Assembly (NCBI GenBank): GCA_038858525.1
Contig: JAWCFL010000012.1
Coordinates: forward strand, 29,492 to 61,491
Origin: Candidatus Jordarchaeales archaeon
GTDB taxonomy: Archaea; Asgardarchaeota; Jordiarchaeia; Jordiarchaeales; Freyrarchaeaceae
Length of the DNA: 32,000 bases
Reading direction: 5' to 3'
Position 1 is the first letter of the stretch, and each line of letters begins with the position of its first letter. Positions 4,418 to 24,875 of this stretch are shown piece by piece. The notes under the pieces are model-generated. The model saw nothing but the letters and a program-made list of their open reading frames with translations, was not told the DNA's origin and ran no database searches. The translations under genes and the position numbers were made by a program.

Positions 4418-5296
4418 TTGCTTCCGCTTTTTGTTAACTTAGAGCAAGTTACGCAGGGTCTCTTTATGACTGTCGTCATATGGATACTCCAGTATGGGTT
4501 TCTCGGTTTCTATGCAGCGATGGTCATACAAGCAATAATAGCAATCATCCCGAGTGAACTCATACTCATGTTCGGGGGAATCGCATACTCGCTTATCTAT
4601 TGGCCTGTGAATATTGTTAAGGGGTTCGACTACGCTTTGCTCGTGACTGCTCTGGTTGGAGGGGTTGGTGAACTGACGGGGGCGGTCGCAGGCTTCTACA
4701 TAGCAAGGATCGTAGGTAGGCCGATCGTATCCAAGTGGGAGGAGAAGGCGATGCAGGCTCGTGATGGAAATCCGAACGCGAAGAAGCTTGGAAGAATTGA
4801 GAAGGCGATCTTTTTGAGTCTGGGTGACGCCATTTTGATCGCGGATAACTGGCTTGAAAAATGGGGGGCTATTGCCGTCCTGTTAGCTCGACTAGCTCCG
4901 CCAATACCTTTCGACGCCGTGTCTTACGGGTCAGGGCTCACTAAGATAAAGTTTAAGCCATTTATCGCCGCCACAACAGTTGGGGCGTTTCCAAGGGCTC
5001 TCATGTACGCTTACATAGGAAAAAGGACTTACGAAAGCTTTGTGTTAATCCCTCAAGCACTCAGAACACTGTTCTTCCTCACCGACAATCCTGTAGCCCA
5101 AATGCTCATATACAACTACTTGGCGGGCAACCCGATCATGAGCAACCCCTACACAATATTCTTCGCTGTGGCAGCAGCGATACTCGCCTCGCTCTACATA
5201 TCTTACGAGGTCATAAAGAGAACCCAACTTAGGGGGCACCGGGCAAGAGGGCTAGACGAGCCTTGCTCAAAAACTGGAGAGGAAAGCGTAAAGTGA
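4418..5296 (+). CDS. VTT/DedA-superfamily membrane protein (TVP38/TMEM64/TMEM41-like)
   Basis: Hydrophobic helices with IPSE and ARLAPPIPFDAVSYGSGL motifs. Confidence 0.8.
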   Translation: MLPLFVNLEQVTQGLFMTVVIWILQYGFLGFYAAMVIQAIIAIIPSELILMFGGIAYSLIYWPVNIVKGFDYALLVTALVGGVGELTGAVAGFYIARIVGRPIVSKWEEKAMQARDGNPNAKKLGRIEKAIFLSLGDAILIADNWLEKWGAIAVLLARLAPPIPFDAVSYGSGLTKIKFKPFIAATTVGAFPRALMYAYIGKRTYESFVLIPQALRTLFFLTDNPVAQMLIYNYLAGNPIMSNPYTIFFAVAAAILASLYISYEVIKRTQLRGHRARGLDEPCSKTGEESVK

Positions 5297-5374
5297 GATG
5301 AGCGTCAGAGACCTGCTCGCCGAGTAGTGTTTTTAGGGGGAGAGGTTCTCCTTTATTTTTTGGGCGTGGTTGCC

Positions 5375-6856
5375 GTGGCGAAGTGGCCTTACTTTGCAGG
5401 GGACTACGTGGTTGGAAGGGAGGAAGCTGCCTTCGCCGTGGTAACATGTGGCTCACATGACCTTCCTGAAAAGGTGGTTGCGCTGGCGGCTGACCTTGTA
5501 GCCATAGCGGGATCATGTGAGACCGAGAACGACGGCGTCGCCAGAGTGATCCAAAACATAGTTTCCAACAGCAACATACGATTTCTCGTCGTCTGCGGGG
5601 AGGAGGTTGTAGGGCACGCTCCGGGACAAACCATAGTGTCCCTCCACGAGAACGGCATAGGGCCAGACTACAAGGTTATTGGAAGCGAGGGCACAATACC
5701 CGTCCTGCACCCGAAGTACTTCAAGGTAGGGGACCCTTACACGGTCGTCGAGCGTTTCAGGAAGCAAGTTGAGTTAGTTGATCTCCGCGGAGAAAAAAAC
5801 CCGGACAGCATTGCGGCAAAGATACGCTCACTCGCAACCAAACGGGTCGAGAAATATTCTGAGCCGCCACTTCTCCCGCTTCCGGAAGAGGAAAAATATG
5901 ACTGGGCTACGGCACTTAGGCGCATCGAAGAGAAAGGCTGGCTGAGGGAGAGAGAAGTTGAGCCTGTGAGCTCTCTGTTCTACAGGAGGGAGTTGATGGT
6001 TTATGACGTCGCAGGAGTTAAGCTTGGGGGGCAGCGGGGAGAGTACTCCACTGTTCTGGCCGGGACGATCTTCTACAGGAAGGAGCCCATAGTCAGGGAC
6101 CCTATTAAGGGGATTTTCGATGAGAAGGCCGCTGAAGAGCTAATAGTGAGGCAGACGGAGCTTTCGGACGAGTACTGTGTGCCCTCGATGGTGCATGTGG
6201 TGGGCGAGACTGGGGAGGCTCTCTCAAACTATATGCTTTTCGTGGCGGACGTGACGGACGCACCAATAATAATAGATTCAACTAGTCTTGAAGCCCGCGT
6301 CGAAGCTATGATGATCGCGAAGGAGGTCGGACTGGAGCACAAAACAATATACAACTCGGTGTTAAGTGCTGAAGAGAGGGAGCTTGAAGCTTTGCGTGAC
6401 GTAGCGCCGATAGAGCACGCCATAATACTGTCTTATGGTTTCACGCTGGATGAGAGACTAAAAAAGGCGGATCTCATACTGTCCAGCGTTCGGGGGGTCG
6501 TAGAGAAGGCGATCCTGGACCCGGGGGTCCCCATACTCGGCGAGGGCGGATTGGAGGCGCTTCACTCCGCCTGGACTATGAAGAAGCTTTACGGCTACCC
6601 CACTGCTATAGGAATACACAACATGCTCGCAGGCGTTCACCACGAGTTGAGACGAAAAATGGACTTCTCCTTCATATACGCTCTTCCCTCACTGTATGGC
6701 GTCGACCTCAACCTCTATGGTCCGATGAAGAACGCGCCCAGAATTTTCCCCCTGGTTGCCGCCGCTGAAGCTGCAGTGGCGGATGAGTTACACAGCGTTC
6801 TCGGAGTCCATCCTAGGCCAACCCACCCATACTATAAAGTGAGGGAGACGAAATGA
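5375..6856 (+). CDS. mtrAH: MtrA-MtrH fusion: corrinoid-binding MtrA domain plus methyl-pterin methyltransferase MtrH domain
   Basis: N-terminal WPYFAGDY..CGSH..TENDG..SNIRFLVVCGEEVVGHAPGQ (MtrA, His at 5615-5617); C-terminal GGQRGEYSTVLAGTIFY..IIDST (MtrH). The track starts at 5327; GTG 5375 is preferred by homology. Confidence 0.85.
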   Translation: MAKWPYFAGDYVVGREEAAFAVVTCGSHDLPEKVVALAADLVAIAGSCETENDGVARVIQNIVSNSNIRFLVVCGEEVVGHAPGQTIVSLHENGIGPDYKVIGSEGTIPVLHPKYFKVGDPYTVVERFRKQVELVDLRGEKNPDSIAAKIRSLATKRVEKYSEPPLLPLPEEEKYDWATALRRIEEKGWLREREVEPVSSLFYRRELMVYDVAGVKLGGQRGEYSTVLAGTIFYRKEPIVRDPIKGIFDEKAAEELIVRQTELSDEYCVPSMVHVVGETGEALSNYMLFVADVTDAPIIIDSTSLEARVEAMMIAKEVGLEHKTIYNSVLSAEERELEALRDVAPIEHAIILSYGFTLDERLKKADLILSSVRGVVEKAILDPGVPILGEGGLEALHSAWTMKKLYGYPTAIGIHNMLAGVHHELRRKMDFSFIYALPSLYGVDLNLYGPMKNAPRIFPLVAAAEAAVADELHSVLGVHPRPTHPYYKVRETK

Positions 6857-8494: not shown

Positions 8495-8628
8495 AACCAA
8501 CCACTAAGTGATTCAGGCTGATGAGCGTGCCTAGCGAATATCTGTTTTTTCTCTACTTATCTTTATCAAACAATAACAGTTTCTTCGTATGGTATATTTA
8601 CTCATTTGTTAATCCATATCTCTCATAT

Positions 8629-9345
8629 ATGTTTGACCCAGCCTACCTGTTTTGGGACATGTTAATGTTATGGATGAATCCTCTTGCTTGGGGTATGTTT
8701 TGTTTTTCAAATTTTTTTCCAGGCGGGGATCTAGGTGTTTACTTCGCGGTGTTTCTCGTTAGCATTTTCGGCAACTTATCCGTAATTTTCCCGGTACCAT
8801 ACGTAATTTTTCTTTGGTTTCTGGTTATTTTTAGAGTTTGGATTAATCCTCTGCTTTTAGGAATTGCAGCCGGCAGTGGAGCAGCTATAGGTGAGACCTC
8901 TGCCTGGCTTCTCGGGAGAGGGGCGGCTGAAGCGCTGGAGGACACGCAGTATGGTCAGCGGCTTAAGCGCTACGGGAGTCTCATAGAGCGGGGGTGGGGG
9001 ATCCCGCTAATCATTATATTTGCGGCATTGCCTTTGCCCGACGACGTCCTTCTTTTAGCTCTAGGGGCGCTTAAGTATTCCTATAAGAAAACAATTATAG
9101 CTTGCTTTACAGGAAAAATCATAATGTGTGTCGCAATATCTTTTGCTGCACGAGCATTTTCAACAACAAGAATATTCGGGAAAACTATCCTTGAGTGGTA
9201 CTCCGGGGAAGCGGGATTAACCACGATGCTTACCAGCATCGCCTTAATGATCCTAGTTTTCATAGCTCTGTTGTTCATTGATTGGGGTAAACTCTACCGA
9301 AAACTAAAAGAACTCATAAATAGCATTTCAAAGGTGTTCCCCTAA
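8629..9345 (+). CDS. VTT/DedA-superfamily membrane protein (YqaA/VMP1-like)
   Basis: FPVPY, GAAIGETSAWLLGR, PLPDD. The track starts at 8521, but that segment looks like AT-rich promoter DNA. Confidence 0.7.
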   Translation: MFDPAYLFWDMLMLWMNPLAWGMFCFSNFFPGGDLGVYFAVFLVSIFGNLSVIFPVPYVIFLWFLVIFRVWINPLLLGIAAGSGAAIGETSAWLLGRGAAEALEDTQYGQRLKRYGSLIERGWGIPLIIIFAALPLPDDVLLLALGALKYSYKKTIIACFTGKIIMCVAISFAARAFSTTRIFGKTILEWYSGEAGLTTMLTSIALMILVFIALLFIDWGKLYRKLKELINSISKVFP

Positions 9346-10018
9346 TAATTGTCTTCTATAAACTTTTATCTCTAAGTTATTGTTATTAATGTTCAATTAT
9401 TGAATTTTTATTCACATTTCCCAGTCTTACAAGAGAAAATTTTTAGTTAGTGAGACATTTTTCTCCGCAAATCAAATGCTCTCTCGCCAAAAAAACTAAT
9501 AGCAAAAAATAGCAAAAATAGAGAATGAACAGGAAAAGAGGCAGGAAAAGGACCACCGTTGTGGTATTCGTGTTTTTTCATCTTTTCCTTTTCTTTATGG
9601 GTTTTCTGGGGTGGTGTCTCCCCGAGCATACTTAAACAATGCTCCGGCGCCACACAGCACACGTCAGGCACAAGCTCAAAGAAAGCCAAACAAAAACACC
9701 TATAAAAATCCATCCACAAAACCCAACAAACCCTTCTCATTAAGTGCCATTTTTCATGTGTAGTGCACGTCGTTTTACTGCCCTTTCCCTGAAGCATTAC
9801 ATGTTTTCATTTTTCATGTTTAGCGTATTATCCGTCTTAGAACTTTCTTTGACAATGTTTTTCATGTGAGTAGCAGGCGCCCAAAAAATTTAAAATTTGA
9901 GTCGAGTTCAAGCTTCATAACATATCGTTTCTTGTAGCGTTGTGAGTTTCAAGCGCTTAATTTATAAAAGGGATGCTTTATTCTGAGTCTTACAAGAGTG
10001 TATGGGAGTGGTTGAAGA

Positions 10019-17764: not shown

Positions 17765-18594
17765 CCTCTAAAGAGAGCTTCTTAGGGTGCTCTAAGCCTT
17801 ATGGTGAGGCATTAGTGATAATAATGGGGGTTCCCTTCGATGCTACCAGCACTTATAAGCCGGGCGCTAGGTTTGCCCCATCAGCCATAAGGGCTGCGTC
17901 TTGGAATATGGAGAGCTTCAGCCTTAAACGCATGGCTGATGCCTGCTCACTCAGCTTCTGTGACGTTGGCGACTTAGATGTGGTTCCGGGAGACGTGCAC
18001 CAAACCCTCCAGCGGTTAAAGGCAGTAGTCTCCGAAGTCGTTGATGAAGGTAAAAAGCTTCTCGTTTTGGGTGGGGAACACACCTTAACGCTGGGCGTAG
18101 CTGAGTGCATCAGTGGCGTCGGCGTGATACAATTTGACGCCCACACTGATTTAAGAGATGATTATGCATCCCAAAGAATATGTCACGCGACAGTTGCTAG
18201 AAGAATGCATGAAGCGGGAATTTCGCTTCTCCAAGTGGGAGTTAGAGCTTGCTCGAGGGAGGAGTACGAGTACGCTGAGGAAAACGGCATTGTTTTGGTG
18301 CCAGCGCACGAAGTTCGTCGCTCTCTAAGTTACGCCATGAGTCGCATAAAGGAGTTCCAGGAGGAGCACGGGAAAATATATGTGACGGTTGACGTAGACG
18401 TTCTAGACCCGGCGTTTGCGCCCGAAGTCGGAAATCCTGAGCCAGGAGGCTTAACGATAACGGAGCTCATCAGCCTAATAGAAGAATGCCACAATGTTGC
18501 TGGTGGCGACGTCGTGGAAGTGACGCCTTCAGGCGGCTTTACAGCGTTTACCGCAGCTAGAATAGCCATAGAACTCATGTTTCAAATGCATTAG
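17740..18594 (+). CDS. speB: Agmatinase (ureohydrolase family)
   Basis: GVPFD, PGARFAP, GGEHT, DAHTD, DVDVLD; ATG 17740 follows GGAGG. Confidence 0.9.
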   Translation: MGYKGLYLTSKESFLGCSKPYGEALVIIMGVPFDATSTYKPGARFAPSAIRAASWNMESFSLKRMADACSLSFCDVGDLDVVPGDVHQTLQRLKAVVSEVVDEGKKLLVLGGEHTLTLGVAECISGVGVIQFDAHTDLRDDYASQRICHATVARRMHEAGISLLQVGVRACSREEYEYAEENGIVLVPAHEVRRSLSYAMSRIKEFQEEHGKIYVTVDVDVLDPAFAPEVGNPEPGGLTITELISLIEECHNVAGGDVVEVTPSGGFTAFTAARIAIELMFQMH

Positions 18595-19397
18595 ATTAAG
18601 TCCAGTTTTCTTACTTCCTGCCTTTTCAAGTCGTCGAGCCTCACCATAAATCCCACATTAGCCTTCCTAATATATACTCTGGGTAATCCAACTGATTCGC
18701 CGGCTTTCACCATTTCCTCAAGTGTGGGTCTTCTCATCCTCCTCACTTCGTCCTTCCACGCTAAGTTAGGCTCAAGCTCCTGCAACGTATAGCTTGCCTC
18801 TTCCTTTAGCGCCTTCCCCACATATCCTAGCCTAGCAAGGTTTTCACCAATGTTTTTCATGTGCTCTTCTTTGTCATTGACTGTCGGGATAAGCGTGGTT
18901 CTAACGTCCACGTAGACGTTGCCTGAGAAAAGCGCCTTCAAGGTCTCCCTTAGTCTACTTATGGCTTCCTCCCCCATCTCAACTCCTATAACTCTGCTGT
19001 AGAGGGCGGGGTCATTAAATGCTGCCTTAACGTCCACCGAAACCAAGTCAACTTGCCCCAAAAGCCTCTTTACAACATCTGGAAAGTAACCGTTGGTGTC
19101 GAACCCGAAAAGTAACCCGTGATCCCTGCAGAACTCGGAAAGCTTAAGCAGGAACTCAGGGTAAAGAGTAGGCTCGCCTCCAGAAACCTTAACCGCGTCC
19201 ACGGCGCCCAGCGCCACCCTAATCTTCGAGAGGAACTCGTCGAACTCTTTCTCATGCTCGGGCTTAGCTTCGAGTATCCGCCAATTCTGACACATCGGAC
19301 ACTGGAAGGGACACCCTGGAACGAAAATCACTAAGGCCGGGCTACCCGGGTAGTCCATGAAGCTCAGCTCGGCGACTCCTGCAACCATAATTCTCAT
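18591..19397 (-). CDS. Radical SAM activating-enzyme family protein (NrdG-like)
   Basis: GCPFQCPMCQN, SGGEPT, DTNG, VRTT. Start uncertain (19442, 19397 or 19388). Confidence 0.8.
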   Translation of the reverse strand: MRIMVAGVAELSFMDYPGSPALVIFVPGCPFQCPMCQNWRILEAKPEHEKEFDEFLSKIRVALGAVDAVKVSGGEPTLYPEFLLKLSEFCRDHGLLFGFDTNGYFPDVVKRLLGQVDLVSVDVKAAFNDPALYSRVIGVEMGEEAISRLRETLKALFSGNVYVDVRTTLIPTVNDKEEHMKNIGENLARLGYVGKALKEEASYTLQELEPNLAWKDEVRRMRRPTLEEMVKAGESVGLPRVYIRKANVGFMVRLDDLKRQEVRKLDLI

Positions 19398-19507
19398 CAA
19401 AAACACCGAATTTATTTTTAGTTCAAAATCTTTGAAGGACACTTTTAAATATTAGTGTCTCCCTTGAGTATGCAATGTTTAAAATTTAAAAAGAGGAGGG
19501 AAGGTTT

Positions 19508-19933: not shown

Positions 19934-20575
19934 ATGGAGTCAACTCTCGTAATTTTGAAGCCTGACGCGACCATAAGAAGCTTCGTCGGGGCGTACACCA
20001 TCAAAGCGATACTGGATCAAGGATACAAAATAACTGCCTTCAAATTGGTTCAAGTAACGGATAAGCTCGCGGAAAAACACTATGAAGAGCACGCAGGAAA
20101 ACCCTTCTTCAACTGGCTTATAGCATACATTAAAGCCGCCCCGGTCGTGGCGTTAAGAGTGGAGGGCGAAAATGTAATACAGGGAGTGAGACGCCTGCTC
20201 GGAGCAACATTAGCTCAGAAAGCAGATCCGGAGACAATTAGGGGAAAATATGGAATATGGGGCGGCATAAATGTGGCGCACGCCTCAGACTCCCCTGCAA
20301 CCGCAGAGAGAGAGCTTACCCTCTGGTCAACAAAGGCAGGCTTGAAGAAAAACGGGCAGGAAAAAGCGGAGGAATACGCTGGGCTCCAGTGCTTCACGAA
20401 GGACAACACGAAAAAACTCAGAGAAGTATGCAAAAACCTCACAGAAAGAAAAAACAACGTCGAAGATGCACGAGAGTTAATAAAAAGGCTTCTAACCGAA
20501 GAAAATCCCAGCGCCCCCCCTCACTACATATCTAACCTTACCGAAGTAATAATTCAGAACTGCCTGTTATCATAA
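19934..20575 (+). CDS. ndk: Nucleoside diphosphate kinase with a C-terminal extension
   Basis: TLVILKPD, HYEEHAGKPFF, TIRG, NVAHASDS (catalytic His). Confidence 0.92.
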   Translation: MESTLVILKPDATIRSFVGAYTIKAILDQGYKITAFKLVQVTDKLAEKHYEEHAGKPFFNWLIAYIKAAPVVALRVEGENVIQGVRRLLGATLAQKADPETIRGKYGIWGGINVAHASDSPATAERELTLWSTKAGLKKNGQEKAEEYAGLQCFTKDNTKKLREVCKNLTERKNNVEDARELIKRLLTEENPSAPPHYISNLTEVIIQNCLLS

Positions 20576-20816: not shown

Positions 20817-21353
20817 CTAAGAAGTCTGCACACTTCGCTTAGTAATGATCATTCTGGCTAGGTCGGCGAACGCCTCATTAACGTTCATACCTGTCTTAGC
20901 GCTAGTTTCGAAGTATAGCAAATTGTGCTTAATGGCGAACTCTAGCGCATCCTCAAGGGGAACGCTTCGAGGCAAGTCATGCTTGTTCCCGATTAAAATC
21001 AGCGGGATGTCGCCGCAATGCGACCTAACCTCCTCAATCCAGAATGGTAGTCTCTTAAAGCTCTCCACCTTAGTCACATCATAAACACAGAGGCCCCCAA
21101 CAGACCCCCGATAGTATAGCGGTCTAATGTGGCTGAACCTGTCCTGCCCCGACTGGTCCCAAACCTGAAACTTAACGTTTTTCCTCCCAAGAGGCGTGTC
21201 AACTTCAATGTTCTTCACAGCAAAATCTACTCCAACAGTCATCTTGTAGCTTTCCGAAAAAACACCCTCACTAAAACGTCTCGTTATAGAAGTCTTCCCG
21301 ACGCCTCCATCCCCAACTATCACCACCTTAAACAAGTAGGCATACTCCGCCAT
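20817..21353 (-). CDS. Rab-like small GTPase (Ras superfamily)
   Basis: G1 GDGGVGKT, G2 TVGVDF, G3 WDQSGQ, G4 NKHD, G5 ETSAK. Confidence 0.93.
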
Positions 21354-22336: not shown

Positions 22337-22430
22337 TGGAGCCCCGGCCGGGCTTTGAACCCGGGGCCTTCTCATTACCAGTGAGACGCTCTAACCAGGC
22401 TGAGCTTTCCCGCTAATGAGGCACCGGGGC
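22337..22430 (-). tRNA. tRNA-Thr(GGT) with a 16-nt intron at 8/9 (22407-22422); CCA encoded
   Basis: Spliced: GCCCCGG TA GCTC AGCCTGGTTA GAGC G TCTCA CTGGTAA TGAGA AGGCC CCGGG TTCAAAG CCCGG CCGGGGC T CCA. Confidence 0.9.
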
Positions 22431-22567
22431 AACTTCCGGGGCTTCAATCCTTAAGAAAAAAGGATTCGGTATAAAAACGTTTTCTGGTAAGTTGCGAAGT
22501 TATGGATAGCTATGCTTCTTCCGTACGACAAGTTGTCGTTTGGTTTTTAGATGCGTAGTTTCTGGTT

Positions 22568-24310
22568 TTATGTTTGAGGTTGCTGTTTGGCTTGCGAGAA
22601 CAAGTCCAGTATTGTTAAGGCGATTATCTTGGCGGCTTCCAGTATCTCCTTTATTGATACTTTCTCGTTTGGTTTGTGTTTTTGCTCTCCTTCCCCTGGC
22701 CCGAAAGAAGCTGCCGGGATCCCGTTCAGTATGCAAACCTTCGTCATTGTGACTTCCCTTTCGCCTACGAGCTTAGCATCTTCTCCGGTTATCTCTTTCA
22801 CGTTTTTCTTTAACGTCTGTATCAAGGGGTGGTTTTGGGGGATTTCCGTTGGCGGCTCTGAAAGGATTATGTCGAGCGATATTTCGACTCCTTTAATCTC
22901 TTCCTCCGTTTTTCTTACGACTTCTGTTAGACGGGAAATTATTTCTTCTTCTTTTATAGCTGGAGTATACCTTATATCTATCGCGGCTTCAGCCTTATCA
23001 GGCACGATGTTTACTCCTATGCCACCCTGAATTGTTCCTATATTCATGGTCACTTCTCCCATGAGAGGGTGAGGTGGTACGTCGAACTTGACCTCGGATA
23101 TTCTCCCTAGGAGCCTTACTAATGCCTGTACCGCGTTTGCTCCTTCCTGCGGTGTGGACGCATGTGCGGAGCGCCCTCTACAGGTGACCTTAAGCCAGAG
23201 CAAGCCTCTCTCCGCGACGCATATATCTTTGCTTCTCGTGTTTCCTCCAATTATAGCGTAGTCCGCATTTATTTTTCGCTCCCTCAATAAGCTTTTTATT
23301 CCGAGTTCTCCGGCTACTTCCTCGTCAGCTGTTGCCACAAGCAGCACGGTACCGTCAAGTTGCAGGTTTAGCTTTTTGATTGCGTGTAGTGCAAGTAGCA
23401 TAGAGGTTAGAGGCCCTTTGGCATCTACGCTTCCTCTTCCTATTACGTAGCCATCTTTCACCGTTGCTCTGAAGGGCGGATACATCCACCCGTCTCCCGG
23501 CGTAACGACGTCGAGGTGAGCTGCCAGCATAATCTTGGGCTCTCCTTCCCCAAGCCTTCCTATAACGTTGGTTCGCCCCTCCTTTTTCTCGTAAATTTCT
23601 GTTTGGGCTCCTATCCTGTAAAGCTCCCCTAACACTATTTCGGCCGCGCTTTGCTCGTATCCCGGGGGGTTTACTGACTGAGCGGATATGAGGTCTCTTA
23701 GCAAGTTGACTGCGTAGTTCTCGCCTTCGTCTATGATTTCTGTAAGGCGCTTTCTCATTTCTGGCGTCAATTTTAATGGGGTTACCTTCGCTTTTTCTTC
23801 CTTGATCCCTAGGATGAGCTTAGCTGCGGCTGTGAATGCTTCATCCACCATGTATCTCGTCTTTGCACTCGTCTCAAAGTAGAGCGCGCCCAGCTTTCTA
23901 GCCATTTGCTCTGCTTCGTACCTTGGGACTCTCCGCTCACTGACTAAGTCATGCTTATTCCCCACTAAGATTATCGGTATCTTGCCGCATGTGCTTGTGA
24001 GCTCATTATACCATTTTTCGACGTTCTCAAAACTCCTCATGTTTGTTAAGTCGAAGACTATTACTCCCCCCCTCGCTTCAGTGTAAAAAAACGAGCGCAG
24101 GTGGGCGAAGCTTGGCTGACCCCCTAGATCCCAGAGCTGTAACGTGACTATTTTTCCGTCCAGATCGGTTTTGTAAGAAGCAAAATCAGCTCCTAAAGTT
24201 GGACGGTAATCTGTTGGAAATCTGTTTTCCGTAAGCACTAAGATAAGGCTTGTTTTTCCAACATTACCGTCCCCAATAACGACAATCTTGAAAACGTACT
24301 CTTCCTGCAT
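22568..24310 (-). CDS. Fusion of an N-terminal Rab-like GTPase and a C-terminal M20 family (ArgE/DapE-like) metallo-deacylase
   Basis: GDGNVGKT/WDLGGQ/NKHD/ETSAK followed in frame by HLDVV, GRGSVDAKG, ADEE, GRSAHAS, GPG..HKPNE. Confidence 0.88.
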   Translation of the reverse strand: MQEEYVFKIVVIGDGNVGKTSLILVLTENRFPTDYRPTLGADFASYKTDLDGKIVTLQLWDLGGQPSFAHLRSFFYTEARGGVIVFDLTNMRSFENVEKWYNELTSTCGKIPIILVGNKHDLVSERRVPRYEAEQMARKLGALYFETSAKTRYMVDEAFTAAAKLILGIKEEKAKVTPLKLTPEMRKRLTEIIDEGENYAVNLLRDLISAQSVNPPGYEQSAAEIVLGELYRIGAQTEIYEKKEGRTNVIGRLGEGEPKIMLAAHLDVVTPGDGWMYPPFRATVKDGYVIGRGSVDAKGPLTSMLLALHAIKKLNLQLDGTVLLVATADEEVAGELGIKSLLRERKINADYAIIGGNTRSKDICVAERGLLWLKVTCRGRSAHASTPQEGANAVQALVRLLGRISEVKFDVPPHPLMGEVTMNIGTIQGGIGVNIVPDKAEAAIDIRYTPAIKEEEIISRLTEVVRKTEEEIKGVEISLDIILSEPPTEIPQNHPLIQTLKKNVKEITGEDAKLVGEREVTMTKVCILNGIPAASFGPGEGEQKHKPNEKVSIKEILEAAKIIALTILDLFSQAKQQPQT

Positions 24311-24452
24311 ATCTCTTTCACCTATCCAAAAATCAACGAATATTTTTTGTAGAAGAAAATACCTAATAAAAAGATTAGATTCGAACGTTATAAAGTTTAG
24401 GAGTTAATCTCCGTAGAATGTTTTTCCGCCCTAAACTAGTCTTCACAGCTCT

Positions 24453-24875
24453 CTAGGCGAACGTGCTACATTTTGGCAACAAGTATATTTTTAGGCCGTC
24501 GTGCTCCATGATTCTTTTCCATTTTTTCGAGAGTCTAACCAGTTGAAGGGTTTCAGGGTACCCCGCTCTCTCACCGACTTCCTTTTCGGTGAACCAATCC
24601 GCCTTCAAGGAGCCATCCCCCCTTCTACTTTTCACTTTCCCTCTAAAGGAGAATACTACAGGCGCCGTCGGGTCATCCACCTGCTGATAGATGCACACAA
24701 CCCCCTGCACTTCTACGTCGTAACCTGTTTCCTCTCTCACCTCTCGCCTCGCCGCCTCAACAAGATCCTCCCCCATCCTAACCTTTCCTCCAGGAAGCGC
24801 CCAGAAACCATCTCTCTCCTCTACGAGAAGATATTTCCCCTCCTCCTCCACTACGACAATCGCCACCAGGCTCAT
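24453..24875 (-). CDS. NUDIX hydrolase
   Basis: Nudix box GGKVRMGEDLVEAARREVREETG. Confidence 0.9.
   Translation of the reverse strand: MSLVAIVVVEEEGKYLLVEERDGFWALPGGKVRMGEDLVEAARREVREETGYDVEVQGVVCIYQQVDDPTAPVVFSFRGKVKSRRGDGSLKADWFTEKEVGERAGYPETLQLVRLSKKWKRIMEHDGLKIYLLPKCSTFA

Follow-up and report, generated by a model that had tools for sequence, protein, structure and literature searches.

Small GTPases of Asgard archaea are central to ideas on the origin of eukaryotic membrane and cytoskeletal regulation, and we know of almost none with a known partner or effector. Fusions that join such GTPases, Rag- or Arf-like, to longin or roadblock domains, both known GTPase-regulator folds, have been described (PMC10933270). 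That report makes no mention of a fusion to a peptidase or M20 domain, and in the literature on Asgard small GTPases, in which the longin and roadblock fusions are covered, we found no description of a GTPase-M20 fusion. Here, we analyze a gene of this kind, located on the minus strand at positions 22568..24310 of a 32,000-nt stretch of DNA from a hot-spring Asgard archaeon belonging to the Jordarchaeia. The whole stretch is referred to as the window, and all positions are window coordinates. The gene encodes a Rab-like GTPase joined in frame to an M20 module of the ArgE/DapE type. We favor, with a probability of roughly 0.55, the interpretation that the product is a GTPase that retains the M20 fold as a dimerization or sensing module and for which hydrolysis is dispensable.

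According to the listing of open reading frames (ORFs) and the translation, the gene is a single uninterrupted ORF of 580 amino acids (protein P0001), in which Pfam recognizes Ras (residues 8-166, E = 7e-51), Peptidase_M20 (residues 261-568, E = 5.5e-34) and M20_dimer (residues 365-471, E = 3.9e-23). The GTPase domain spans residues 1-170 (23801..24310; this and all features below are on the minus strand unless indicated). Its G1 or P-loop motif GDGNVGKT (residues 13-20; 24251..24274) and its G3 or switch II motif WDLGGQ, with catalytic Gln65 (residues 60-65; 24116..24133), are accompanied by switch-I Thr38, the G4 motif NKHD and the G5 motif SAK, as expected for the Ras superfamily (PF00071). 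WDLGGQ was considered as a signature specific to the fusion and was rejected, as 29 of 119 stand-alone relatives carry it as well. A charged linker of about 12 residues follows (residues 171-182; 23765..23800), which is the least conserved part of the protein (59% identity within the clade, ω ~0.26). An AlphaFold2 model of the fusion, built from a 70-sequence alignment, has a mean pLDDT of 92.5 and a pTM of 0.74, with pLDDT values below 50 only at residues 172-177 and at the C-terminus. An earlier annotation made from the sequence alone (the original prediction) had proposed one in-frame 580-residue GTPase-M20 ORF, a complete G1-G5 domain retaining the catalytic Gln, and a short charged linker at about residues 170-180. 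All three proposals hold, and the linker coincides with the segment that is disordered in the model.

The fusion is confirmed as a real gene and not a chimera. In run X10, which comes from a separate and independent hot-spring study, a 16.4-kb contig (depth 62) spans positions 22400-24500 with 10 substitutions and zero gaps, leaving the gene intact across the junction, where the original prediction had considered a chimera or a lost stop codon. Among 400 Asgard species genomes, a full-length fusion is found in all 11 of the window's order, comprising four of four in family f1, six of six in family f2 and the window's own genome; one of the 11 is a closed genome of 3.58 Mb. A large protein database contains 14 clusters (50-100% identity) with the architecture Ras + M20 + M20_dimer. 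All named clusters among them belong to the Jordarchaeia, of which 'Freyarchaeota' is a synonym (10.1101/2024.02.28.582541), under the NCBI label 'ArgE/DapE family deacylase'. No characterized protein or paper with this architecture was found, and a structure search retrieved no solved chain spanning both halves (query-normalized TM ≤0.59), in agreement with the earlier remark that the fusion is not recognizable from characterized proteins. Split or shorter forms were looked for as well, and P0280 alone was found, which is cut by a contig end. The idea that M20 is also made on its own from a conserved start within the ORF was rejected, as the Met near residue 186 (Met186) is not conserved. In metatranscriptome run X13, two contigs (95-99% identity) match parts of the M20 half only, and show neither transcription nor a single transcript.

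An exhaustive HMMER search covering 1.84 billion representatives yielded just two further full-length representatives, P0012 (family f2, 51% identity) and P0122 (38%); the other long matches either carry Ras in tandem or combine M20 with another kind of N-terminal domain (DUF2007, GrpB). Outside the Jordarchaeia, the fusion is present in a Hodarchaeota genus (three of three genomes) and probably in Odinarchaeia. The 3' end of the gene varies between strains. The window reads TAA at 22568..22570, and an A>G substitution at 22570 in runs X10 and X13 changes this stop codon to CAA. The commoner allele corresponds to database protein P0002 (587 amino acids), which is the same protein extended by the seven residues QNQKLRI. 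Since P0002 and the sister species continue past this site, the window allele is a C-terminal truncation by 7 residues.

The ArgE/DapE-type M20 module occupies residues 183-576 (22583..23764) and consists, according to Pfam, TIGR01910 and Foldseek, of a catalytic lobe with an inserted dimerization lobe (residues 365-471, including His383; 22898..23218). A helix at residues 183-195 was assigned to the module because P0124, the closest relative without a fusion, has it as well. DapE 7UOI is the best sequence match in the PDB (E = 2e-35), and Foldseek aligns the module to DapE and ArgE structures with TM values of 0.84-0.85. The module scores 287.6 bits on TIGR01910, the model for ArgE/DapE-family M20 deacylases, and thereby exceeds its cut-off (217.6). 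In contrast, all equivalog models for DapE, ArgE and LysK remain below their cut-offs (e.g., NF003367, 119 bits vs 363; TIGR01892, 159 vs 298), and hence no substrate can be assigned.

Catalytic residues were mapped by HMMER alignment to DapE 3IC1 and 7UOI and to 3CT9; in comparisons between clades, they carry the numbers of H. influenzae DapE. In the window copy (own numbering), the metal ligands His265 (23516..23518), Asp296, which bridges the metals (23423..23425), and His545 (22676..22678) are kept, as are Glu330 and Glu331, the catalytic base and a metal ligand within the DEE motif (23318..23323). The ligand equivalent to Glu163 is lost: the motif GEPT reads GGNT in all three alignments, placing Gly356 (23243..23245) at this position. 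The two-metal site (His, bridging Asp, Glu, Glu, His) is thus incomplete, with four of five ligands kept, while both the general base Glu330 and the dimerization-lobe residue His383 are present. In DapE, a GGG-T loop lines the substrate pocket. From the 3IC1 alignment and comparison of the clades, this loop is replaced in the window copy by residues 517-520 (E-R-E-V; 22751..22762), of which Glu519 is fixed in the window's clade. The original prediction of a full ArgE/DapE-type domain is therefore right as to length and family membership, but not as to the Glu163 ligand and the GG(T) loop. Judged by these residues, the window copy is an intermediate, which still has the base and four of the five ligands but lacks the fifth as well as the substrate loop. 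Weak one-metal activity may persist in it, but catalysis appears to be dispensable in its clade.

Comparison of four clades shows how far this loss has gone elsewhere. Clade A comprises the five species of Jordarchaeial family f1, including the window copy, and clade B comprises Jordarchaeial family f2. Clade C is one other Asgard genus, in which all three genomes carry the fusion and of which NCBI names a member 'Candidatus Hodarchaeota', and clade D consists of the Odinarchaeial proteins P0402-P0405 (552-581 amino acids). The G1-G5 motifs are identical or nearly so across all four. In clade B, His67, Asp100, Glu134/Glu135, Glu163, His194 and His349 are all kept. In clade A, His67, Asp100 and His349 are kept, and Glu163 is replaced by Gly in five of five species. 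Two of the five have lost further catalytic residues: Glu134/Glu135 is Gly-Glu in L006/P0005, turning DEE into DGE, and the dimerization-lobe His194 is Tyr in L007/P0007. Clade C retains His67 alone, with Asp100 replaced by Cys, Glu134/Glu135 by Gly-Leu, Glu163 by Ser, His194 by Glu and His349 by Asn. Clade D has lost every one of these residues and, in addition, has a deletion of about 23 residues in the surroundings of the first metal-binding loop. By these alignments, the M20 catalytic set is complete solely in family f2, while the GTPase motifs do not vary.

Clade C also differs in other respects. Its linker contains a 40-residue Pro/Glu-rich insertion, and new Cys and His residues lie beside the old site (Cys264, His266, Cys295, Cys296 and Cys544), bringing the Cys count to 7, compared with 1-3 in clades A and B. 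In the proteins of this clade (L001, L016-L018), the Cys/His motifs VCHHDV, GACC[GS]KG and KCN adjoin the former ligands. The M20 site, though dead in this clade, may have been remodeled into a metal or redox site.

For clade D, Pfam finds Ras alone. Alignment to clade C nevertheless extends over 88-99% of the length at ~30% identity, and hhalign relates the C-terminal 370 residues to an M20 profile with a probability of 93.7% (E = 1.8e-7, 342 columns). The gene order around the fusion, which clades C and D have in common, also speaks for an M20 origin. Language-model look-alikes provide a weak lead in the same direction, the top named clusters all being M20 (score 0.90). Foldseek and VIA-align searches with a full-length model (pLDDT 71) returned lists filled by Rab matches to the G domain, which aligns to Rab structures with TM values of 0.85-0.88, and are silent on the C-terminal half. 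Taken together, the C-terminal domain of clade D is very probably derived from M20. Because clades C and D keep the fusion with a dead or unrecognizable M20 domain, hydrolysis is not what the family conserves.

Selection on both halves was evaluated by Nei-Gojobori estimates of ω on codon alignments from genome loci. The values are rough, as dS is saturated (1-1.9). In clade A, ω is 0.045 for the GTPase and 0.110 for M20, at identities within the clade of 83% and 72%, respectively; M20 is thus about twice as relaxed as its GTPase, especially in the dimerization lobe and the C-terminal part (65% identity). Corresponding values are 0.074 and 0.051 in clade B (86% and 88% identity) and 0.044 and 0.056 in clade C (87% and 88%). 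The dead M20 domain of clade C is therefore constrained like its GTPase, and must have some function other than hydrolysis.

A tree of the M20 part that includes 56 unfused relatives unites clades A, B and C (SH-aLRT 91) and places P0124, which is unfused, as their sister (83). The stem of clade C is long, with 1.53 changes per site compared with 0.36-0.39 for A and B. GTPase trees group A with B (99) and C with D and the partial Odinarchaeial protein P0285 (99). Trees constrained to unite the GTPases of all fusions are not rejected (p-AU 0.57 when D is left out, 0.40 when it is included). The simplest and most likely account of these trees is one ancient fusion of a Rab-like GTPase to an active deacylase, followed by repeated catalytic decay, with transfer between classes as a possible alternative history.

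The protein consists of an N-terminal Rab-like GTP switch tethered by some 12 residues to a two-lobed M20 module in one polypeptide. We propose that it represents an Asgard-specific family in which selection has kept the GTPase and the M20 fold rather than hydrolysis, the M20 module now chiefly serving the GTPase. The likeliest role of the module would be that of a constitutive dimerization platform, in which the dimerization lobe pairs two G domains, comparable to the role of COR for Roc in Roco proteins. A further possible role is that of an effector surface or of a sensor for a ligand or metal. The sequence data show the fusion, where it occurs, the state of the motifs and the purifying selection; dimerization, coupling between the domains and loss of activity are our inferences. 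A docking prediction for the two halves returned a score of 0.00 and no answer, and counts neither way.

Several observations weigh against the proposal of a dimerization or sensing module. The window copy keeps Glu330, His265, Asp296, Glu331, His383 and His545 and passes TIGR01910, and the M20 domain of its clade is still under purifying selection (ω ~0.11, an estimate made rough, like the others, by dS saturation at 1-1.9). Because catalytic residues and purifying selection persist, a one-metal enzyme or an enzyme of altered specificity is conceivable, and Glu519, specific to clade A and located in the active-site loop, might substitute as a ligand. Furthermore, dimerization is inferred from the retained M20_dimer lobe, and the assignment of clade D to M20 draws on profile and language-model evidence.

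The alternative that survives best is that of the original prediction, a GTP-gated amidohydrolase or an enzyme localized by its GTPase domain, i.e., a working deacylase or peptidase that the fused GTPase switches or positions according to its nucleotide state. The retained base and ligands, the TIGR01910 score and the fold match to DapE and ArgE are consistent with such an enzyme, as is the short tether, which would permit contact between the domains, and clade B orthologues retain every catalytic residue. The replacement of a metal ligand by Gly356 in all clade A species, the rebuilt substrate loop and the further catalytic losses in two of these five species argue against it. So does the persistence of the fusion with a dead M20 domain in clades C and D, under purifying selection in C, which indicates that catalysis is not the function common to the family. 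In addition, with no equivalog model passed, there is no nameable substrate, and in none of the clades does the gene lie within an operon for amino-acid biosynthesis. The fusion is not the housekeeping LysK or ArgE, because two stand-alone M20 paralogues in the window's genome score far higher on NF003367 ([LysW]-lysine hydrolase), with 303 and 280 bits vs 121 for the fusion; this genome (2.09 Mb, 92.7% complete) contains five further M20 loci in total. For the window copy, which lacks one ligand, we regard a gated or targeted enzyme as possible but on the unlikely side. It is more plausible for the family f2 orthologues, with their full catalytic set.

A second alternative, which overlaps with the dimerization or sensing module favored here, is a ligand or metal sensor, in which a small molecule or metal would bind at the former active site without being turned over, and this binding would set the state of the GTPase. 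The exchange of carboxylate ligands for Cys and His near the old site in clade C (7 Cys vs 1-3), the strong conservation of this dead domain and a NikR-type nickel regulator 22 bp downstream of the fusion in clade B would fit such a role. This support is all circumstantial, however, and no ligand can be proposed; neither the window nor clade A has the NikR neighbor, and clade D lacks the loops around the site altogether. We consider this second alternative quite improbable. An artefact, whether an assembly chimera or two genes merged by a lost stop codon or frameshift, has a negligible chance, since the low-depth contigs (depth 4-6) of runs X9 and X11 that end near the junction reflect fragmentation only, whereas the X10 contig bridges it without gaps, 11 of 11 related genomes (one closed) and 14 database clusters carry the fusion, the sole short form stops at a contig end, and the Met near residue 186 is not conserved as an internal start.

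The genomic surroundings of the fusion differ between clades. In clade A, the conserved order is NUDIX, fusion, a thiolase pair (in one genome), RpiA, a stand-alone Rab-like GTPase, L24e, NDK and ACT. In the window, this stand-alone GTPase (178 amino acids; 20817-21353, minus strand) lies two genes from the fusion and shares 45% identity with its G domain. The block RpiA-Ras-L24e-NDK-ACT also adjoins the fusion in another clade A genome (L022). The nucleoside diphosphate kinase of the window (19934-20575, plus strand) has a C-terminal extension of ~80 residues, its NDK domain covering residues 2-131 of 213; in L022, the protein has 208 amino acids. In clade B, TrxR-like genes are found upstream of the fusion. 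The NikR-type regulator (RHH + NikR_C; L002:7754-8185) was observed in the closed genome of Ca. Freyarchaeum deiterrae, a species whose clade B orthologue is WXG40460.1.

Clades C and D have a common order, in which the fusion is followed by YjeF_N/Carb_kinase, a gelsolin-repeat protein and Roadblock/LC7, and then by phosphoglucomutase on the other strand. This neighborhood is a conserved cluster of eukaryote-like genes, and the gelsolin-repeat neighbor is 46% identical between the Hodarchaeota-type and Odinarchaeia genomes (L020:9495-10896 and L021:9331-10590). Such synteny is absent at the window's gene: the gelsolin-like gene of the same genome lies on another contig, and none of its 16 roadblock loci is adjacent. 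A 283-residue ORF of the window (18591-19442) was considered as a gelsolin-like neighbor and rejected, as it encodes a radical SAM protein.

Elsewhere in the window, a 509-residue ORF (5327-6856, plus strand) joins MtrA (residues 18-183) and MtrH (residues 221-487). Both are tetrahydromethanopterin S-methyltransferase subunits, and the lineage is not methanogenic. Two VTT-domain membrane proteins (DedA/VMP1-TMEM41-like) are encoded less than 4 kb apart at 4418-5296 and 8521-9345 (plus strand). Positions 9001-10000, flanked by a VTT-domain gene and the gene for S6e, have a GC content of 0.377, compared with ~0.47-0.53 elsewhere. ARAGORN at default settings detected zero tRNA genes in the whole window.

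A bolder extension would be that the fusion is an Asgard-specific, self-contained signaling GTPase that recruited a former deacylase as dimerization and sensing domain, thereby inventing a Roc-COR-like design independently. We consider this doubtful. If true, every stage would be captured, from an active enzyme in Jordarchaeial family f2 to an unrecognizable relic in Odinarchaeia, and the gelsolin-repeat and roadblock neighbors in Hodarchaeota and Odinarchaeia would link the fusion to the cytoskeleton or to GTPase regulation. 

In this family, the partner of the GTPase is part of the same chain, and natural variants appear to span the whole path from enzyme to pseudoenzyme, in lineages including Hodarchaeota-type Asgard archaea. 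The family could therefore serve as a tractable system for how a metabolic enzyme becomes a regulatory module of a GTPase and for what an archaeal Rab-like switch controls. Annotations also need to be corrected, as the labels 'ArgE/DapE family deacylase', 'M20 metallo-hydrolase' and 'Rab family GTPase' each hide half of the protein.

Compared with known systems, the C-terminal half shares with the ArgE/DapE M20 deacylases (TIGR01910; DapE 7UOI, 5VO3 and 3IC1; ArgE 7RSF) the two-lobed fold, the dimerization lobe, the catalytic Glu and four of five ligands. It differs from them in its N-terminal GTPase, the Gly at the Glu163 position, the replaced GGG-T loop and the existence of dead sister clades.

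The N-terminal half resembles Rab and Asgard Rab-like GTPases (PF00071; Rab8a, Rab1b and Rab3 structures) in its complete G1-G5 set and catalytic Gln. Its nearest named proteins are annotated 'Rab family GTPase', with at most 52% identity to the stand-alone Asgard members and 38-43% to eukaryotic Rab1, Rab8, Rab39 and Rab43. RabF motifs are defined as IGVDF, KLQIW, RFRSIT, YYRGA and LVYDIT; by eye, the fusion has partial matches (LGADF, TLQLW, FYTEARG and VIVFDLT). Unlike Rab proteins in the strict sense, which have a hypervariable tail ending in CC, CXC or CAAX, the fusion lacks such a tail and a C-terminal prenylatable Cys. Its C-terminus is instead formed by the 400-residue M20 module, ending in AKQQPQT (or this plus QNQKLRI) without a Cys motif.

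Roco proteins provide a working analogy. Like these, the fusion has a Ras-like G domain (104.7 bits on the Pfam Roc model) followed by a domain that dimerizes in its own family. Unlike these, it has no COR, LRR or kinase domain according to Pfam, M20 is unrelated to COR, and dimerization of the fusion would follow from the family resemblance of its M20 lobe. With the longin- and roadblock-fused Asgard GTPases (PMC10933270), finally, it shares the arrangement of a small GTPase with a regulatory domain in the same polypeptide.

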